From: Candidatus Magasanikiibacteriota bacterium | GTDB taxonomy: Bacteria > Patescibacteriota > Patescibacteriia > Magasanikbacterales > UBA922 | Length of the DNA stretch: 33,060 nt | NCBI GenBank assembly: GCA_041674805.1 | Contig: JBAYVA010000002.1 | Coordinates: 149,234-182,293 of the forward strand | Direction: 5' to 3' | In this document: positions 4,361 through 31,202 of the stretch, in pieces | Layout: each line of letters starts with the position of its first letter | How positions within the stretch are numbered: position 1 is the stretch's first letter | The notes under the pieces: generated by a model | Seen by the model: the letters and a program-made list of their open reading frames with translations, nothing else | Databases searched by the model: none | What the model was told of the DNA's origin: nothing | Made by a program: the position numbers and the translations under genes

Positions 4361-6406
<2,046 letters not shown>

Positions 6407-6439
6407 AAATCATATAACAAAAAACATATAACATCTAAC

Positions 6440-6469
6440 AAAAAAACACCACTAATCTGGTGTTTTTTG
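6440..6469 (+). terminator. intrinsic terminator after gyrB
   Basis: Hairpin acacca-ctaatc-tggtgt (6446-6463) followed by a T-run. Confidence 0.7.
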
Positions 6470-6558: not shown

Positions 6559-6634
6559 TATCTCATAAATCGGTCAAAAGGCCGTTTTTTAATAAAGAAA
6601 ATAAAAGGTTTAAGTTAAGGACTATAATATAGCT

Positions 6635-6679
6635 TAGTCTTTCGGGCATTTCCAGCCTTTTAAGCCTTTCAAGCATTTC
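6635..6679 (+). repeat. phased 9-nt tandem array (RRGCMTTTY x5) in the secE 5' UTR
   Basis: Reads tagtctttc|gggcatttc|cagcctttt|aagcctttc|aagcatttc, ending 6 nt before the ATG at 6686. Confidence 0.85.
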
Positions 6680-6685
6680 TAGAAT

Positions 6686-6880
6686 ATGAAATTTTTTAAA
6701 TCTATCGGTCAATATATCATAAATTCTATTCACGAATTAAAAAAAGTAACTTGGCCAACAAAAAAACAAGTTTTGACATACACTTTAGTCGTAGTTGTAA
6801 TGAGTTTGGCTGTTGCTGTTTATTTTGGTGTTTTAGATTATGGTTTTAATTGGTTATTTGAACTTATAATTACAAAATAA
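6686..6880 (+). CDS. secE: preprotein translocase subunit SecE
   Basis: 64-aa ORF with the ELKKVTWPTKKQV motif and a single C-terminal TM helix, immediately upstream of nusG (canonical synteny). Confidence 0.85.
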   Translation: MKFFKSIGQYIINSIHELKKVTWPTKKQVLTYTLVVVVMSLAVAVYFGVLDYGFNWLFELIITK

Positions 6881-7475: not shown

Positions 7476-7548
7476 ATTACTACCTTTTGCTTCTAACTTT
7501 TCTAGTATTTCCAGCCTTTCAGAAAAATAATAACTTTAACAAAAAATT

Positions 7549-7593
7549 AGGCATTTCTGGCTTTTCGAGCCTTTTAAGCCTTTCAAGCTTTTA
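7549..7593 (+). repeat. phased 9-nt tandem array (RRGCMTTTY x5) in the rplK 5' leader
   Basis: Reads aggcatttc|tggcttttc|gagcctttt|aagcctttc|aagctttta, ending 6 nt before the ATG at 7600. Confidence 0.85.
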
Positions 7594-7599
7594 AAATAT

Positions 7600-8022
7600 A
7601 TGGCAAAAAAACTAAAAACACAAATAAAATTACAAGTAGTCGGTGGCGCTGCTAATCCAGCACCTCCAATTGGTCCAGCTCTTGGTCAACATGGTTTGAA
7701 TATTCAAGATTTTTGTACTCAATTCAACAATGCAACAAGTGATAAAAGAGGTGAAGTAGTTCCTGTTGTTATCAATGTTTATGATGACAGAACTTTTGAC
7801 TTTATTACAAAAGTAGCTCCTGCAAGTGAACTTATCAAAAAAGCTGCTGGCATTAGTAAAGGTGCTGGTAATCCTTTGAAAGATAAAGTTGGCAAAATTA
7901 CCAAAGCTCAATTGAAAGAAATTGCTGAAAAGAAAATGGAAGATTTGAATGCTCATGATATTGAGTCTGCTATGAAAATTATTGCTGGTACAGCAAAACA
8001 AATGGGTGTACAAGTTGAATAA
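7600..8022 (+). CDS. rplK: 50S ribosomal protein L11
   Basis: 140 aa with the canonical L11 sequence ([31 protein letters not shown]). Confidence 0.97.
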
Positions 8023-8147: not shown

Positions 8148-9266
8148 ATGAAAAAAATTAATCAAAAAGGTATTTATATTATTGCTGCAGTATTTTTTTT
8201 GGCAGGTTTGGCTTTATTGATTATTTTTTATAGTAATATTTTTTTTGCTAAAAATAAAGTAAATGATGATATTGTAAATATTCAAGAAAACAATGTTACA
8301 AATGAAGTAAAGGAAGTTTGTGATTTTGTTCGTCTTTTGGATGGTGTATGTGTAAAAACACAAGAAGAAACAAATCCAGAGTTAGTAGCGGTGATGATAG
8401 AGAATCATACTGAAGCTAGACCTCAATCTGGTTTGGCTTATGCTTCTGTGGTATATGAAGCACCTGTTGAAGCTAATTATTCTAGGTTTATGGCTATTTT
8501 TTCAAAAGATGTGGATGTAGCAAAGATAGGTCCTGTACGTAGTGCACGTAAATATTATTTGGATTGGTTGCGTGAGTATGGCAAAGATATTATGTATATG
8601 CATGTTGGCGGTTCACCAGAAGCTTTACAAATTATAAAGACTGATAAGAATATTTTTGATTTCAATGAATTTTCTAAAGGTCCTTATTTTTGGCGTAGTA
8701 CTGATAGATATGCTCCACATAATGTTTATACTAATAGTGAGAATTGGCAAATAGCTTGGGAAAAATTAGGTACCAAAGAAAATACAGAATTTAAAACTTG
8801 GAAATTTGAAAGTTTAGAAAATTGTATAAAAGAAGAAGATAATTGTGTAAATAAAATTACTGTCTCATTTTTGCCACCAACTTATGAAGCTGTTTGGAAT
8901 TATAGTAGTAGTACAAAAAAATATTTACGTTCACAAATAGAAGGTAAACATCGTGATTTAGATGGTACGGTAATAGAAGCGGATACTATCATTGTGCAAA
9001 AAGTGACAAGTAAAGTTTTAGATGAAGTAGGTCGTTTGCAAATAGATACTATTGGAAGTGGCGAAGCTATTATTTTTCAAAATGGACACATATTAGAAGG
9101 TACTTGGAAAAAAGAAACAGTGACTGGTCGTACTAGATGGTTAGATAAAAGTGGTAATGAAATACCTTTGAAAGCTGGAAAGATTTGGATTGAAGTGGTG
9201 AATGAGAGAGGAAATGTGGAATGGGGAACCCTCCCAGACGGCGGGCAAGCGGGGAATGTGGAATGA
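8148..9266 (+). CDS. DUF3048 (YerB-like) domain protein, membrane-anchored or secreted
   Basis: 372 aa with an N-terminal TM or signal helix. The segment VAVMIENHTEARPQSGLAYASVVYEAPVEANYSRFMAIF...GPVRSARKYYLDW matches my recollection of DUF3048. The last ~20 aa derive from a GC-rich repeat element. Confidence 0.75.
   Translation: MKKINQKGIYIIAAVFFLAGLALLIIFYSNIFFAKNKVNDDIVNIQENNVTNEVKEVCDFVRLLDGVCVKTQEETNPELVAVMIENHTEARPQSGLAYASVVYEAPVEANYSRFMAIFSKDVDVAKIGPVRSARKYYLDWLREYGKDIMYMHVGGSPEALQIIKTDKNIFDFNEFSKGPYFWRSTDRYAPHNVYTNSENWQIAWEKLGTKENTEFKTWKFESLENCIKEEDNCVNKITVSFLPPTYEAVWNYSSSTKKYLRSQIEGKHRDLDGTVIEADTIIVQKVTSKVLDEVGRLQIDTIGSGEAIIFQNGHILEGTWKKETVTGRTRWLDKSGNEIPLKAGKIWIEVVNERGNVEWGTLPDGGQAGNVE
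9200..9266 (+). repeat. GC-rich hairpin element, short copy
   Basis: GGAATGNGG words flank ccctcc-cagac-ggcggg (9229-9245) followed by caag. It is homologous to 9532-9606 and very GC-rich for this genome. Confidence 0.7.
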
Positions 9267-9269
9267 CAT

Positions 9270-9302
9270 ACAGATTACAGATTGTACAGATTTACAGATG
9301 TG
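9270..9302 (-). repeat. ATCTGTA-type heptamer array, orphan copy
   Basis: The plus strand reads acagattacagattgtacagatttacagatgtg. Together with the preceding cat it shares a 16-nt identity with the prfA leader at 11390-11405. Confidence 0.8.
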
Positions 9303-9357
9303 AAATAATAAATTGAGATACAATAGAGATAAAATAGAGATGATATTATTTTCAATA

Positions 9358-9390
9358 ATAAAAAAACTGGGTTTTAAACTCAGTTTTTTG
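9358..9390. terminator. bidirectional intrinsic terminator between the convergent DUF3048 gene and prmC
   Basis: An A-run, then hairpin actgggtt-tta-aactcagt (9366-9384, one G-U pair), then a T-run. Confidence 0.7.
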
Positions 9391-9411
9391 TTATATGGTA
9401 TATGTTACATG

Positions 9412-10353
9412 TTACGTGATTATTACCATTCTATCTAGCCCTGACAAATCTTTTTTCACTTCAATATTTGCTTCTGGTAAATATTTTTTTATCATTGTTT
9501 TTATTTTTTCGGTTTGAGAAGGATCTATTTCGAGGAATGAGGAAAGGGGAATGAGGAACCCTCCTTCGCTCTGTACTCCGTCAGAGCTTCGGCGGGCAAG
9601 TGCGGAAATTTGTTTGAGAAGTTCTTCGTAGAGCGCGAGGCCGTCGTTGTCAGCTACTAGAGCGAGTTTTGGTTCGTGTTGGATTGAAAGTTCATTTTGG
9701 AATTGTTGTTTTGTAATGTAGGGGAGGTTGGCAGTTATAATAAGTTCAGTGTTCTTAGTTCTTAGTTCAGAGAGTTGGAGTATTGGTTCTAGTAAATTAC
9801 CGTGTAAAAATTTAATTTCCACATTATGTTTTTTTGCGTTCTTTTTTGCAACGTTTAATGCTTTACTAGATACGTCCACAGCAATTGTTTTCATTTTAAA
9901 ATGCGGATTTACGGATAATGCGGATTTACGGATTGATATAGGTATACACCCGGAACCAGTACCAACATCGATTAACAATATGCGTTCAAGTGTTGAAGTG
10001 TTTATTTGTTGTATTGCAGTCTCCACCATCAACTCAGTATCTGGTCTTGGTACAAGTACATTTTTGTTCACCAGAAAATCAAGTCCAAAAAATTCTTTGT
10101 GTCCGACTAGATAAGCGATAGGAATATTTTTTTGTCTTTGTCTAACAAGACTTTCAAATTTTATTTTTTGCCAAAAATTTATTTCAAAATCTGGGTTTGT
10201 AAACAAAAACTCACGTGATTTTTGTATCACGTGAGATAATAAGATTTCCTTGTCTAAAAGAGAGATTTTTGAATTGATTGCTAACAGTTTTTTTACGGTA
10301 ATTTTCATATTGAAATTTCTAAATTCCAAAATTTTAGATATCTTGTTCTGCAT
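9412..10353 (-). CDS. prmC: peptide chain release factor N5-glutamine methyltransferase (PrmC/HemK)
   Basis: Contains the SAM motif [11 protein letters not shown] and the catalytic tetrapeptide as NLPY (canonical NPPY), and lies directly downstream of prfA. An alternative start is at 10308. A GC-rich element is present in frame at 9532-9606. Confidence 0.88.
9532..9606 (+). repeat. GC-rich hairpin element, long copy, in frame inside prmC
   Basis: Reads ccctcc-ttc-gctctg-tactccgt-cagagc-ttc-ggcggg (9559-9596), flanked by GGAATGAGG words and caag. It has the same outer stem as the copy at 9229-9245. Confidence 0.7.
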
Positions 10354-11392
10354 AATCAGCCACTCGCATTTTTTCCATTATTTCTTCCAAATTGCCATCA
10401 AGAATTTTGGTAATGTTGTTCCAACTTTCTTTTATTCTGTGATCAGTGATTCTATCTTGAGGATAATTGTAGGTACGAATTTTTTCACTGCGGTCGCCAG
10501 TTCCAATTTGTTTTTTGCGTTTTTCAGAAGCTTCTGCTTCACGTCTTTCACGTTCTACTTCATACAGACGGGCACGAAGCACGCCCATCGCTTTTATTCT
10601 ATTTTGTATTTGAGATTTTTCATCTTGACATTGAACAATAGTGCCAGTAGGTAAGTGGACGATACGAACAGCGGAATAAGTTGTGTTGACACTTTGTCCG
10701 CCGTTGCCACCAGCACAATAAGTATCAATACGAAGATCAGATTCTTTTATTTCAAATTCTTTTTCTTCTACTTCAGGCATAACAACTACACTAGATGTAG
10801 AAGTATGGATACGTCCAGATTTTTCTGTTTCGGGAATTCTTTGAACACGGTGAACTCCCATTTCATATTTCATTTCTTTGTAAACATTGTGACCAGAGAT
10901 AGAAAAGATAACTTCTTTGAAACCACCAATTCCAATTTGATTGGAATCTATAAGAGCTGTTTTCCAATTTTTTTTGTCAGCATATTTCATATACATACGC
11001 ATAAGTACACCAGCAAAAAGAGCAGCTTCGTCTCCACCTACGCCAGCACGAATTTCGATGATAACATTTTTTTTGTCCATTGGATCAGTTTCTCTAGTCA
11101 TTTCAGATAGTTCTTCTTCTAATTTTTCTTTTTTGATTTTTGTTTCTTCCAAATCTAGTTGTGCCATTTCGACTAAATCAGCATCTTCTCCTGCTAAGAT
11201 TATTTCTTCATTATCTTTCAAATTGCTTTCTAGTTTTTCTAATTCTTTGACTTTTTCTGCAATTATTTTCAAGTCATCATATTCTTGAGCAGCAGTTTTC
11301 AATTTATTTTGGTCAGCAATAATAACAGGGTTTTGTAAGTCTTGTTCTAGTTTTTGAAATTTAGTTTGGATTTCTTGGTATTTAGATAACAT
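10334..11392 (-). CDS. prfA: peptide chain release factor 1
   Basis: 352 aa with the GGQ motif ([12 protein letters not shown]), a PxT tripeptide as PET, and RIHTSTSSV. Confidence 0.95.
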
Positions 11393-11426
11393 ACAGATTA
11401 CAGATGATACTAATTTACAGATTATT
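11393..11426 (-). repeat. ATCTGTA-type heptamer array in the prfA 5' UTR
   Basis: The minus sense reads ...aatctgtaaattagtatcatctgtaatctgtATG, so the array touches the start codon. Confidence 0.8.
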
Positions 11427-11901: not shown

Positions 11902-11946
11902 TAAATGCCTGAAATGCCTGAAAAGCCGGAAAGGCTTAAAAGGCTC
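11902..11946 (-). repeat. phased 9-nt tandem array (RRGCMTTTY x5) in the rpmE 5' UTR
   Basis: The minus sense reads gagcctttt|aagcctttc|cggcttttc|aggcatttc|aggcattta, then tat and the ATG. Confidence 0.85.
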
Positions 11947-20784: not shown

Positions 20785-20860
20785 GTATTTAATTATACAG
20801 AAAACAAACATATTAAATTTTACTTTTTGAGTTAATAAAATTATTGGAAGGCTAGGTGGG

Positions 20861-20896
20861 CGCCCTTTTAAGCCTTTTAGGCTTTTCAAGCCTTCT
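20861..20896 (+). repeat. 9-nt word array (3 clear and 1 degenerate copy) in the leader of the CNNM gene
   Basis: Reads cgccctttt|aagcctttt|aggcttttc|aagccttct, then tgct and the ATG at 20901. Confidence 0.75.
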
Positions 20897-20900
20897 TGCT

Positions 20901-21905
20901 ATGAACTACATTATAATTATAATTTCCATTTTACTTTCTGCCTTTTTTTCTGGTATAACTATCGGTTTTTTAGGTCTCAAAAAAACAGAGTTACAAAGCA
21001 AAATAAAAGCAGGAAATAAGAGAGTTGCCAAGATTTATGAAGTAAGAAAAAATGGTAATTTGCTTTTGATTACCTTGCTCTTTGGTAATGTATTAGTGAA
21101 TTCAATAGTTTCTGTCTATTTGAATTCGATGTTTTCTGGTTTAATTGCTATAGTATTGTCTACTGCTTTGATAGTTTTGTTTGGTGAAATTGTTCCACAA
21201 GCTATTTTTTATCGTCATGCTTTGAAACTTGGTTATCATTTGGTACCTTTGGTCAAAATATTTATTTTTGTTTTTTATCCTGTTGCTTGGCCTTTGTCAA
21301 AAATGCTTGATCTTATTTTAGGTGAAGAAGAAGAAAATATTTGGTCTAAGCGTGAAATGAAAGAAATAATAAAAATTCATGAAGATTCAGAAGATTCAGA
21401 AATTGATAGAGATGAAGAAAAAATATTGTTAGGGGCTCTTTCTTTTTCAGATAAAAGTGTAAAAGAAATAATGACTCCAAAAAATGTGGTTTTTTCACTC
21501 GAAGAATCTGAAAAGCTAGATGAAAATGTTTTGAACGAAATAAAATATTCGGGATTTTCTCGTATCCCTGTGTATAGACAAGAAAAAGATAATATCGTGG
21601 CAGTACTTAACGTGAAATCTCTTATAAATTTACCAACAAATAAAAAAGTGTCAGATGTTCATTTGGAAGAAAAAATATTTGAAATAGATGAAGACACTAA
21701 ATTGGATGTCTTGCTCAATATGTTCATTCAAAGAAAAAGCCATATTGCTTATGTAGTAGATGAATACAAAACATTTTTGGGAGTAGTCACTATGGAAGAT
21801 TTGCTTGAAGAAATTTTGAAAACAGAGATAGTAGATGAGACAGATAGGTATAGAGATATGAGACAGTATTCTAGAAGTTTGCAGAGTAGAAGAAAGAAAA
21901 AATAG
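20901..21905 (+). CDS. CNNM/DUF21-CBS family transporter (HlyC/CorC-type, without the C-terminal CorC domain)
   Basis: The N-terminal DUF21 membrane domain (LLSAFFSG, FGEIVPQA) is followed by a CBS pair. The ATG at 20901 is preferred because the GTG at 20856 would translate the repeat array. Confidence 0.82.
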   Translation: MNYIIIIISILLSAFFSGITIGFLGLKKTELQSKIKAGNKRVAKIYEVRKNGNLLLITLLFGNVLVNSIVSVYLNSMFSGLIAIVLSTALIVLFGEIVPQAIFYRHALKLGYHLVPLVKIFIFVFYPVAWPLSKMLDLILGEEEENIWSKREMKEIIKIHEDSEDSEIDRDEEKILLGALSFSDKSVKEIMTPKNVVFSLEESEKLDENVLNEIKYSGFSRIPVYRQEKDNIVAVLNVKSLINLPTNKKVSDVHLEEKIFEIDEDTKLDVLLNMFIQRKSHIAYVVDEYKTFLGVVTMEDLLEEILKTEIVDETDRYRDMRQYSRSLQSRRKKK

Positions 21906-30857: not shown

Positions 30858-31202
30858 ATGAAAATTGAGAAATTTGAAGATATAATATCTTGGCAGAAGA
30901 GTAAAATTTTGGTAAAGGATATTTATGAAGTTTTCAAAAATTGTCGAGATTTTGGTTTTAAGGATCAGATACAAAGAGCAGGAATTTCCATTATGAATAA
31001 CATTGCTGAAGGATTTGAAAGGAGAACTAACAAAGAATTAATAAATTTTTTGTACATGGCAAAAGGATCCTGTGCGGAAGTTCGTTCTATGTTGTATGTT
31101 GCCTTGGATTTACAATATATAAATAAAAATAAATTTGATGAATGGTATAAATTGACTGATGACATTTCACGGTTAATTTCAGGTTTTATTAAGACATTAT
31201 AA
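30858..31202 (+). CDS. four-helix-bundle protein (23S rRNA intervening-sequence protein family; Avd-like fold)
   Basis: 114 aa. The segments FKDQIQRAGISIMNNIAEGFERRTNKELINFLYMAKGSCAEVRSML are characteristic of this family. Confidence 0.85.
   Translation: MKIEKFEDIISWQKSKILVKDIYEVFKNCRDFGFKDQIQRAGISIMNNIAEGFERRTNKELINFLYMAKGSCAEVRSMLYVALDLQYINKNKFDEWYKLTDDISRLISGFIKTL

Follow-up and report, generated by a model that had tools for sequence, protein, structure and literature searches.

A GC-rich hairpin nested in a heptamer array: a probable in-frame composite repeat in a surface loop of PrmC from a Candidatus Magasanikiibacteriota bacterium

The window analysed here is a stretch of 33,060 nucleotides, part of a contig (C2) of a Candidatus Magasanikiibacteriota bacterium whose genome (G000) comprises 1.06 Mb at 31% GC and is 99% complete. 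It contains prmC, the gene for the release-factor glutamine N5-methyltransferase, in which a GC-rich hairpin and an array of tandem heptamers are read as codons. The comparisons presented below indicate that this segment probably combines small dispersed repeats of two kinds into a composite, which has become fixed in a permissive loop on the PrmC surface, keeps the frame and contains no stop codon. A previous sequence-only reading had described a single 75-nt element in prmC (9532-9606). The repeat stretch is real, but it is not one element: a GC-rich hairpin is nested in a dispersed heptamer array.

Architecture of the repeat segment in prmC

The prmC gene occupies positions 9412-10353 on the reverse strand, where the longest open reading frame (ORF) has 313 codons and the product matches the Pfam families PrmC_N and methyltransferase. 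The likely start is M16 at 10308, giving a protein of 298 residues, because relatives align from M16 and a 298-residue version is on record. The protein matches HemK/PrmC structures in the PDB by sequence and by fold, with target-normalised template modelling (TM) scores of 0.82-0.85.

The core of the hairpin (9559-9596, assigned to neither strand) is composed, in forward order, of CCCTCC (9559-9564), TTC (9565-9567), GCTCTG (9568-9573), TACTCCGT (9574-9581), CAGAGC (9582-9587), TTC (9588-9590) and GGCGGG (9591-9596), and reads CCCGCC-GAA-GCTCTG-ACGGAGTA-CAGAGC-GAA-GGAGGG in the sense of prmC. Folding of this 38-nt core yields, on the forward and the reverse strand alike, the geometry that had been proposed by eye, namely outer and inner stems of 6 bp each, the outer one with a single mismatch, separated by a 3x3 internal loop and closed by 8 unpaired nt. 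The description of the core as very GC-rich for its genome is equally accurate (25 of 38 nt, or 66%, compared with 31% genome-wide). Folded as DNA, the core is modestly more stable than shuffled sequences, with z-scores of -1.5 on the forward and -2.5 on the reverse strand. Folded as RNA, the 75-nt stretch and the 67-nt stretch of a shorter copy do no better than shuffles (z ∼0 for the 75-nt stretch), so that the case for structure rests on the hairpin family and not on the single copy in prmC.

The flanks are those read originally, with words on the 5' side and CAAG on the 3' side. The 5' flank is an array of heptamers on the forward strand (9532-9558; GAGGAAT GAGGAAA GGGGAAT GAGGAA), and the 3' flank (9597-9608, forward strand) consists of CAAG (9597-9600), a T, and one more word, GCGGAAA. 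A search of positions 9100-9700 against Rfam, at E-values up to 10, gave no credible match. A generic census of GC-rich 6-bp hairpins in G000 returned 304 matches, mostly due to chance and located inside frames in 53% of cases compared with 75% of random sites, and was too noisy to use.

The long hairpin is translated within the 313-codon frame of prmC, as had been claimed, and its core gives a 13-residue peptide; the array at 9532-9558 encodes 10 residues, including those of the beta-strand 270-275 (SFLEI). The excess length had been overestimated at 15-25 residues, the value measured against congeners and 78 other homologues being ∼12-13 residues, and typical PrmC homologues have ∼8-9 residues in the loop concerned. 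The AlphaFold2 model of PrmC, built on 81 sequences, has a predicted local distance difference test (pLDDT) score of 91.5 and a predicted TM score (pTM) of 0.88. Averaged over 10-residue blocks, pLDDT is lowest at residues 251-260 (72) and 261-270 (64) if the first 20 residues, whose blocks average 65 and 76, are set aside, and the only residues below 50, 260-262, lie inside the insert. The predicted helix 240-258 leads into ARRSS and then coil before strand 270-275 resumes the fold. The model is consistent with a surface loop, which the earlier reading had proposed to check by modelling, the insert being predicted as an extension of the helix plus a floppy loop, with the PrmC fold kept.

The insertion belongs to one genus

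PrmC was aligned with its counterparts in 30 relatives and, separately, among 81 database homologues. The insert peptide occurs only in G000 and in two genomes of the same genus, G005 and G003 (3 of the 30 relatives; 3 of the 81 homologues). A peptide so distributed, with congeners that have a short form or words only, is not ancestral, as the sequence-only reading had anticipated, and the alignments delimit the insertion to this loop in a single genus.

At the prmC site G000, G005 and G003 carry the 38-nt long form with its extra inner stem, G002 carries a 17-nt short hairpin (CCCTCC-CAGAT-GGCGGG-TAAG) between words, and G004 and G001 carry word arrays only (GAGGAAT/GAGGAAA and AAAGTCT, respectively). 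Every version, whether long, short or composed of words only, has a length of 3n and is stop-free in the prmC frame. This series and the DNA tree, which joins G001 and G004 with support 95/98 and is unresolved in the remainder, are compatible with one gain and one change between the short and long forms. Within the genus, the PrmC protein tree was not resolved and could not polarise gain against loss. One clean insertion is not enough to turn the short form into the long one, since at least two indels are needed, and the two forms are therefore treated as related subfamilies.

The hairpin core is 97-100% identical among G000, G005 and G003 (38/38, 37/38 and 37/38), compared with 78-85% for the rest of prmC. 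This excess has P ∼0.001-0.002 per pair, the pairs not being independent. The sole difference in the core, which changes R to H in G003, lies at the unpaired mismatch position of the outer stem.

The same loop differs in other lineages as well, where it holds peptides such as LPTGKAG, QPAGRQG, AGRL and PAAARPRFTGG, rich in G, P, A and R and of the kind that GC hairpins encode; in G016 a different hairpin stands there between AAAGTTAT words. By these alignments, the loop is a recurrent landing site. Other loops of PrmC are also affected. The prmC gene of G020, which belongs to another genus (locus L010), has three separate GC-rich inserts, among them ARRSLSEGG, encoded by CCCTCC-TTCACTTAAGCTAC-GGCGGG-CAGG in a loop other than that of G000, and PPLLGEGQGG, encoded by the perfect hairpin TCCCTCCCC-TCTTA-GGGGAGGGA in a third loop. 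A fourth loop, in G002, contains an inverted word array in which a CCCGCC..GGCGGG is nested.

Two further repeats are read in frame in prmC of G000. The array at 9744-9771 (forward strand; GTTCAGT GTTCTTA GTTCTTA GTTCAGA, heptamers of type GTTCWKA) encodes 11 residues in the loop that precedes the NLPY strand, and its word family occupies 12 loci in G000, three of them inside long frames. At 9900-9933 (forward strand) two copies of the 17-nt unit AATGCGGATTTACGGAT encode 11 residues of a loop whose length varies among relatives; ACGGATTTACGGAT arrays are found at nine loci in G000. All three variable loops of the PrmC methyltransferase domain are thus encoded by repeats.

The hairpin family is dispersed and its inner stem covaries

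The pattern CCCTCC-N3-32-GGCGGG has 55 occurrences in the seven genomes of the genus, compared with two of a reversed-pattern control. The 17-nt short form or near variants of it are present in the genus at no fewer than 10 loci that are unlinked, with GGAATGRGG words on either side in almost every case, and the CAAG-type 3' flank follows genus copies too. G000 additionally has ∼20 simple hairpins of the type TCCGCC-caa-GGCGGA-CAAG, most of them between word repeats.

A scan of all species-level genomes for CCCTCC-TNC-GC..GC-TNN-GGCGGG extended the search across phyla. The family so defined, CCCTCC-TWC-GC..GC-TWY-GGCGGG, to which the long form of prmC belongs, is carried by at least 120 genomes of Patescibacteria, Bacteroidota, Verrucomicrobiota, Acidobacteriota, Proteobacteria, Omnitrophota, Ignavibacteria and others; no cyanobacterial match is among the loci listed for these genomes. 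The search of the whole genome and of related genomes that the sequence-only reading had called for thus returned dozens of copies in the genus and many more beyond it, and the family is both dispersed and covarying rather than confined to two copies that lack covariation.

The modal form, accounting for 69 of 126 copies among the matches listed, has 26 nt (CCCTCCTTCGCYRARGCTWCGGCGGG) and is almost identical from Sphingomonadaceae to Magasanikbacteria. Among the same matches CARG or CACG follows 54 of the 126 copies and TAAA follows 16. Longer forms keep the outer stem, the mismatch and the TWC/TWY internal loop, and their inner stems differ yet stay complementary. In 16 long forms, picked by eye, all six pairs of the inner helix (6/6) change on both sides, and none of 500 shuffles reaches the observed score. 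An unselected set drawn from the matches listed has on average 1.70 extra Watson-Crick pairs, compared with 0.38 in shuffles. Tandem words flank 34% of the cross-phylum copies among the matches listed, and 14% of control sites.

Copies within genes are read in more than one way. Among the matches listed for low- and mid-GC genomes, long open frames contain 21 of 71 copies, compared with 66% of random sites. These in-frame copies read as PSFAKATAG, PAEAxAKEG or ARRSxSEGG, the family being read in at least four frames, and in-gene copies lie on the same strand as the host gene in 13 cases and on the opposite strand in eight.

A tandem arrangement was seen in a Saprospirales metagenome-assembled genome (MAG; locus L113), where positions ∼6008-6442 comprise five units of ∼102 nt, each with one canonical 26-nt element and the same flanks. 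On the opposite strand, at a distance of 1.4 kb, there is a sixth copy.

A short copy at the end of the neighbouring DUF3048 gene

The shorter copy that had been pointed out near prmC has, as described, the same outer stem with the same mismatch, CAAG, word flanks and orientation; its hairpin, CCCTCC-CAGAC-GGCGGG, lies at 9229-9245 (assigned to neither strand) and is followed by CAAG to 9249. It is located in the convergent neighbour of prmC, a gene on the forward strand (8148-9266) with the Pfam domains DUF3048 and DUF3048_C, and is therefore antisense relative to the prmC copy. The final 12 codons of this gene (GTLPDGGQAGNVE) and its stop codon come from the composite unit of words, short hairpin, CAAG and words (9207-9266, forward strand). 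In G001, G002 and G004 the orthologues are free of the hairpin and end in VVNERGxVxW(E/K) before the stop, and the tails in G000 and G005 contain a 36-nt insertion consisting of the hairpin, CAAG and two more heptamers.

Just past the DUF3048 stop, positions 9263-9299 hold a 37-nt sequence, ATRACATACAGATTACAGAT..TTTACAGAT, with words of the ACAGATT type, that is 86% identical to positions 11386-11422, a leader running into the start codon of prfA.

Heptamer arrays resemble the arms of S23p cassettes

GRGGAAT arrays occur at 21 loci in G000, 11 of them inside nine long genes and mostly read as NEERGMGNE. These genes include those of valyl-tRNA synthetase (ValRS; C3:109635-112406), with one in-frame array, isoleucyl-tRNA synthetase (IleRS; C2:18529-21516), with two, and UvrC (C1:455650-456993), with one such array and a related stretch, ERGMRNVELGMG; in these three genes the arrays read NEESGMGNE or NEERGMGNE. 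Within the tRNA-synthetase and UvrC set, the comparison with relatives covered ValRS, where five outgroup genomes read PVWYKGEEVFVG at the array site, G000, G001 and G005 have nine additional residues encoded by the array, and G004 and G006 have 12 additional residues from a different array (AAAGTCA). The claim that repeats have spread in frame through genes is therefore correct in substance, although in G000 this spread is carried mainly by arrays, the hairpin subfamily having just two copies.

The ValRS gene of G002 (locus L259) has ∼170 extra residues at the array site, beginning ...LRKPLKVTLFRHGESEANVQKIGAGHMDTPLTDYGRQQAKD, a sequence with an RHG motif typical of histidine-phosphatase or phosphoglycerate-mutase-like domains. 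From its sequence, a whole domain appears to stand in frame where congeners have a word array.

The genome contains 12 genes of the S23p family (PF05635, '23S rRNA intervening sequence protein'), and all of them lie between inverted arrays of a word of their own. Both inverted arms of the gene at C1:126509-126817 consist of GRGGAAT words, and the gene at C1:446053-446367 has GTTCWKA arms. An S23p gene within the window (30876-31184, corresponding to C2:180109-180417) is enclosed by inverted arrays of the GTTATAAC type, with gttataacgttataacgttataacgttgtaatg upstream and the reverse complement downstream. Because their words are shared with S23p arms, the solo arrays, including those in prmC at 9532-9558 and 9744-9771, may be detached arms of S23p cassettes.

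Small GIY-YIG genes are candidate partners of the hairpins

The ORFs within 2 kb of cross-phylum hairpin copies were clustered, and all ORFs in the 831 kb of sequence were scanned with a profile. The recurrent neighbour is a GIY-YIG protein of ∼80-90 residues (Pfam E-values 2e-15 and 8.5e-14 in two of the cross-phylum ORFs; the protein of G000 itself has 2.6e-16). Among the matches listed, six of the seven small GIY-YIG ORFs found in this sequence have an element 5-133 nt upstream of their start, always oriented the same way, an arrangement whose estimated probability for randomly placed genes is ∼0.01 per gene. Read in the sense of the gene, these six loci have the form (C)TTG-CCCGCC..GCGAAGGAGGG, and the GGAGG of the element lies at Shine-Dalgarno distance from the start codon. 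The loci belong to Sphingomonadaceae, Parasphingorhabdus, Rhizomicrobium, Verrucomicrobiae, Solibacteraceae and one further MAG, and several of them lie after a tRNA gene's 3' end and after a second element that is inverted and whose outer stem covaries.

The small GIY-YIG gene of G000 (C1:372069-372272) is located inside a duplicated tRNA-Ser(GGA), the whole locus spanning C1:371851-372420. Both of its flanks carry CTTG and two adjacent GC hairpins (CCAGCC..GGCTGG and TCCGCC-tag-GGCGGA) beside AAAGTTTAT word arrays.

Interpretation and alternatives

The reading favoured here, of an in-frame composite, has two layers. The first is a tandem GRGGAAT array, of a type shared with the arms of one S23p gene and scattered as solo arrays, and the second a CCCTCC...GGCGGG-CARG hairpin nested between two words of such an array. 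The heptamer arrays may be satellites of S23p cassettes, and the hairpins may be gene-less satellites of small GIY-YIG cassettes, of which they would form the 5' end and the Shine-Dalgarno sequence (GAAGGAGGG). Hairpins could spread when breaks provoked by a nuclease are repaired, or by template switching where DNA forms hairpins. The insert itself would be a passenger, selection on the essential prmC gene acting just as a filter for variants that are 3n in length and stop-free, and the prmC copy most likely does nothing for the cell. The hairpin family is either ancient or horizontally spread, and either structurally constrained or born as palindromes.

A broader proposal, that the Candidate Phyla Radiation (CPR) and partly other phyla harbour a two-tier, minimal mobile DNA without transposase, is offered tentatively and may well be wrong. 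In this proposal the arrays are satellites of S23p genes, hairpins of 17-40 nt are satellites of tRNA-linked GIY-YIG genes, and the hairpins nest in the arrays, the two together repeatedly rebuilding surface loops of essential proteins such as PrmC, ValRS, IleRS and UvrC. If it is true, the 26-nt hairpin would serve a family of structure-specific nucleases as the substrate for recognition or repair.

Several observations weigh against these readings. The within-genus tree is mostly unresolved, so that gain and loss are not polarised at the prmC site. No clean target-site duplication or exact edge can be defined between filled and empty DUF3048 sites, and the filled site differs from the empty one by two extra heptamers in addition to the hairpin. 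G000 has only its two copies of the hairpin subfamily, and the comparative data are the sole basis on which the repeats would be regarded as mobile. The sequences in the covariation test were hand-picked, and palindromes that arise by template switching are complementary from birth, so that covariation is no proof of selection for structure. The GIY-YIG link comprises six loci outside the CPR and was found with a hidden Markov model (HMM) built from those same ORFs. Within the genus, none of the GIY-YIG genes with readable flanks (about half of 30 loci) has CCCGCC..GGAGGG directly upstream, so that the prmC copy is linked to GIY-YIG by family and not directly. Finally, conservation of the hairpin above the rest of prmC is not predicted for a purely neutral passenger, and could mean constraint on a DNA or RNA structure or homogenisation between copies.

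This conservation keeps alive the alternative that the hairpin is a functional nucleic-acid structure selected in prmC, either as an mRNA stabiliser or processing site or, through the Shine-Dalgarno-like GAAGGAGGG, as a pause site. The covarying inner stem of the family is in keeping with such a function, as are the cTTCGg loops in which many extended copies end, cTTCGg being a classic stable RNA tetraloop, and the position of the element in the 5' leader of GIY-YIG cassettes with its GGAGG at Shine-Dalgarno distance. A selected structure is nonetheless unlikely, given that the hairpin is missing from prmC in two of six congeners and from 78 of the 81 homologues, that copies occur in either orientation relative to the host gene and the DUF3048 copy is antisense to that of prmC, that the 75-nt RNA folds no better than shuffles, and that Rfam holds no match. 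Selection might instead act on the protein, the loop having been recruited so that PrmC makes a new contact, for example with release factors or with a partner protein. The nearly unchanged peptide in three species and the frame kept in every species that bears an insert would fit such a role, which is however very unlikely for a loop that is predicted to be disordered, that congeners manage without, whose sole core difference falls at the unpaired mismatch of the outer stem, and whose DNA other genes read in different frames.

The series of words only, short hairpin and long hairpin at one site would also be expected if the insert had been born locally, by heptamer slippage and palindrome-forming template switching, without transfer from another locus. 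The loop TCTG of the short form recurs as the 5' arm of the inner stem of the long form, and different species have different word arrays at the same loop, both of which suit a local birth. An origin of this kind is quite unlikely in view of the identical 17-nt hairpin with its flanking words at the unlinked loci of the genus, the outer stem, mismatch and TWC/TWY loop common to genomes of many phyla, and the related copy in a different PrmC loop of G020. Lastly, a GC-rich hairpin inside the coding sequence of an AT-rich genome recalls the GC-rich 'byp' inserts of yeast mitochondria and gene 60 of phage T4, which the ribosome bypasses. Skipping rather than translation of the prmC hairpin is extremely improbable, as all versions are 3n in length and stop-free in the prmC frame and no stop follows a possible take-off codon.

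Comparison with known repeats

The in-frame composite was initially likened to Rickettsia palindromic elements (RPEs). The analogy holds by effect, the repeat being in frame, translated and compatible with the fold, and breaks down by membership, as regards size, conserved peptide and host. RPEs (Ogata et al. 2000, summarised in PMC10969869) are elements of ∼150 bp in ten families, each with a conserved peptide, confined to Rickettsia. Like RPEs, the repeats described here are palindromic and dispersed, and stand in frame in unrelated housekeeping genes with an extra peptide compatible with the host fold (PMC10969869). In-frame insertion is seen in prmC, in the DUF3048 tail, in ValRS, IleRS and UvrC (array layer) and in the 21 of 71 cross-phylum hairpin copies among the matches listed. 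Unlike RPEs, the hairpin has 17-38 nt and the composite ∼75 nt. Both strands and several frames are used in the reading of the family, which is nested in heptamer arrays and extends over many phyla.

The small dispersed repeats (SDRs) of Nostoc, and not RPEs, appear to be the closest in build. SDR4, SDR5 and SDR6 of Nostoc punctiforme and relatives, reported by Elhai et al. in 2008 in a study cited in PMC3116915, are said to be hairpins of 21-27 nt with compensatory changes, often within tandem heptamers, and reportedly differ by presence or absence at orthologous sites between strains and have been described only in cyanobacteria. We know of no transposase for these repeats, nor, to our knowledge, has a link to GIY-YIG or S23p genes been reported for them. 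The corresponding features here are a hairpin with compensatory changes, with all six inner pairs changed on both sides and a modal length of 26 nt, and nesting between GRGGAAT heptamers, which applies to both copies in the window and to genus copies.

Yeast mitochondrial DNA has optional GC clusters, for example in var1, that are mobile GC-rich palindromes in an AT-rich genome, some of them in frame and polymorphic among strains. Unlike the prmC hairpin they are organellar, and they are unrelated to it in sequence and have a different target and flanks.

REP sequences and REPINs are short imperfect palindromes with a conserved flanking tetranucleotide and many gene-less copies, a few copies lying beside a candidate enzyme gene (PMC3116915). 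The hairpins described here likewise have a conserved flank (CARG), gene-less copies and a few copies beside a candidate enzyme gene, and differ from REP/REPIN in low copy number, in copies inside genes and in a candidate partner that is a GIY-YIG nuclease instead of an HUH transposase. A RAYT/Y1 transposase was considered as the mobiliser and rejected, since the 99%-complete genome has no match to PF01797, which control genomes do match; in the absence of a Y1 transposase gene this is not a REP/RAYT system. As regards MITEs (transposable elements of miniature size with inverted repeats), the stem arms could count as terminal inverted repeats and the flanks share words, but no duplication of fixed length is definable and no parent insertion sequence was found.

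TAACTGA heptamer direct repeats of Beggiatoaceae, Cyanobacteria and Bacteroidetes form short scattered arrays that are mostly intergenic and suspected of horizontal spread, with no known mechanism; that they occasionally overlap coding regions has been discussed (PMC4679880). Like them, the arrays of G000 are short, consist of 7-nt words in tandem and are spread across the genome; unlike this single family, they comprise many families of words, each of which matches the arms of one S23p gene, and have frequent in-frame copies in essential genes. A literature search that covered few subscription journals returned, among the papers listed, no description of the hairpin sequence, of the GIY-YIG link or of in-frame repeats in CPR genes.

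Repeat DNA in frame in essential genes has been a textbook curiosity from Rickettsia, and the same outcome is reached in a 1-Mb CPR genome from much smaller blocks. The repeats provide a concrete route by which reduced genomes may gain lineage-specific protein loops, and in the alignment and modelling of CPR proteins such loops should be regarded as repeat DNA and not as informative characters. S23p and GIY-YIG, two large families of unknown function, gain a testable DNA partner in the arrays and the hairpin, respectively.

Other repeats and GC-rich islands

Arrays with a period of 9 nt (GCCTTTTAA / GCCTTTCAA) are located in the window at 6631-6697, 7545-7611, 11913-11943 and 20857-20905, and such arrays abut the start codons of a gene at ∼6685 and of rplK (7600). 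Elsewhere in the genome, short GC-rich islands that are dense in hairpins and have frames on both strands were noted at C1:473400-474546, C4:106400-108965, C2:305400-305750, C2:147700-148000 and C3:29980-30260. Two of these islands are at contig ends. Foreign DNA, assembly joins and GC-rich genes are conceivable explanations for the islands.

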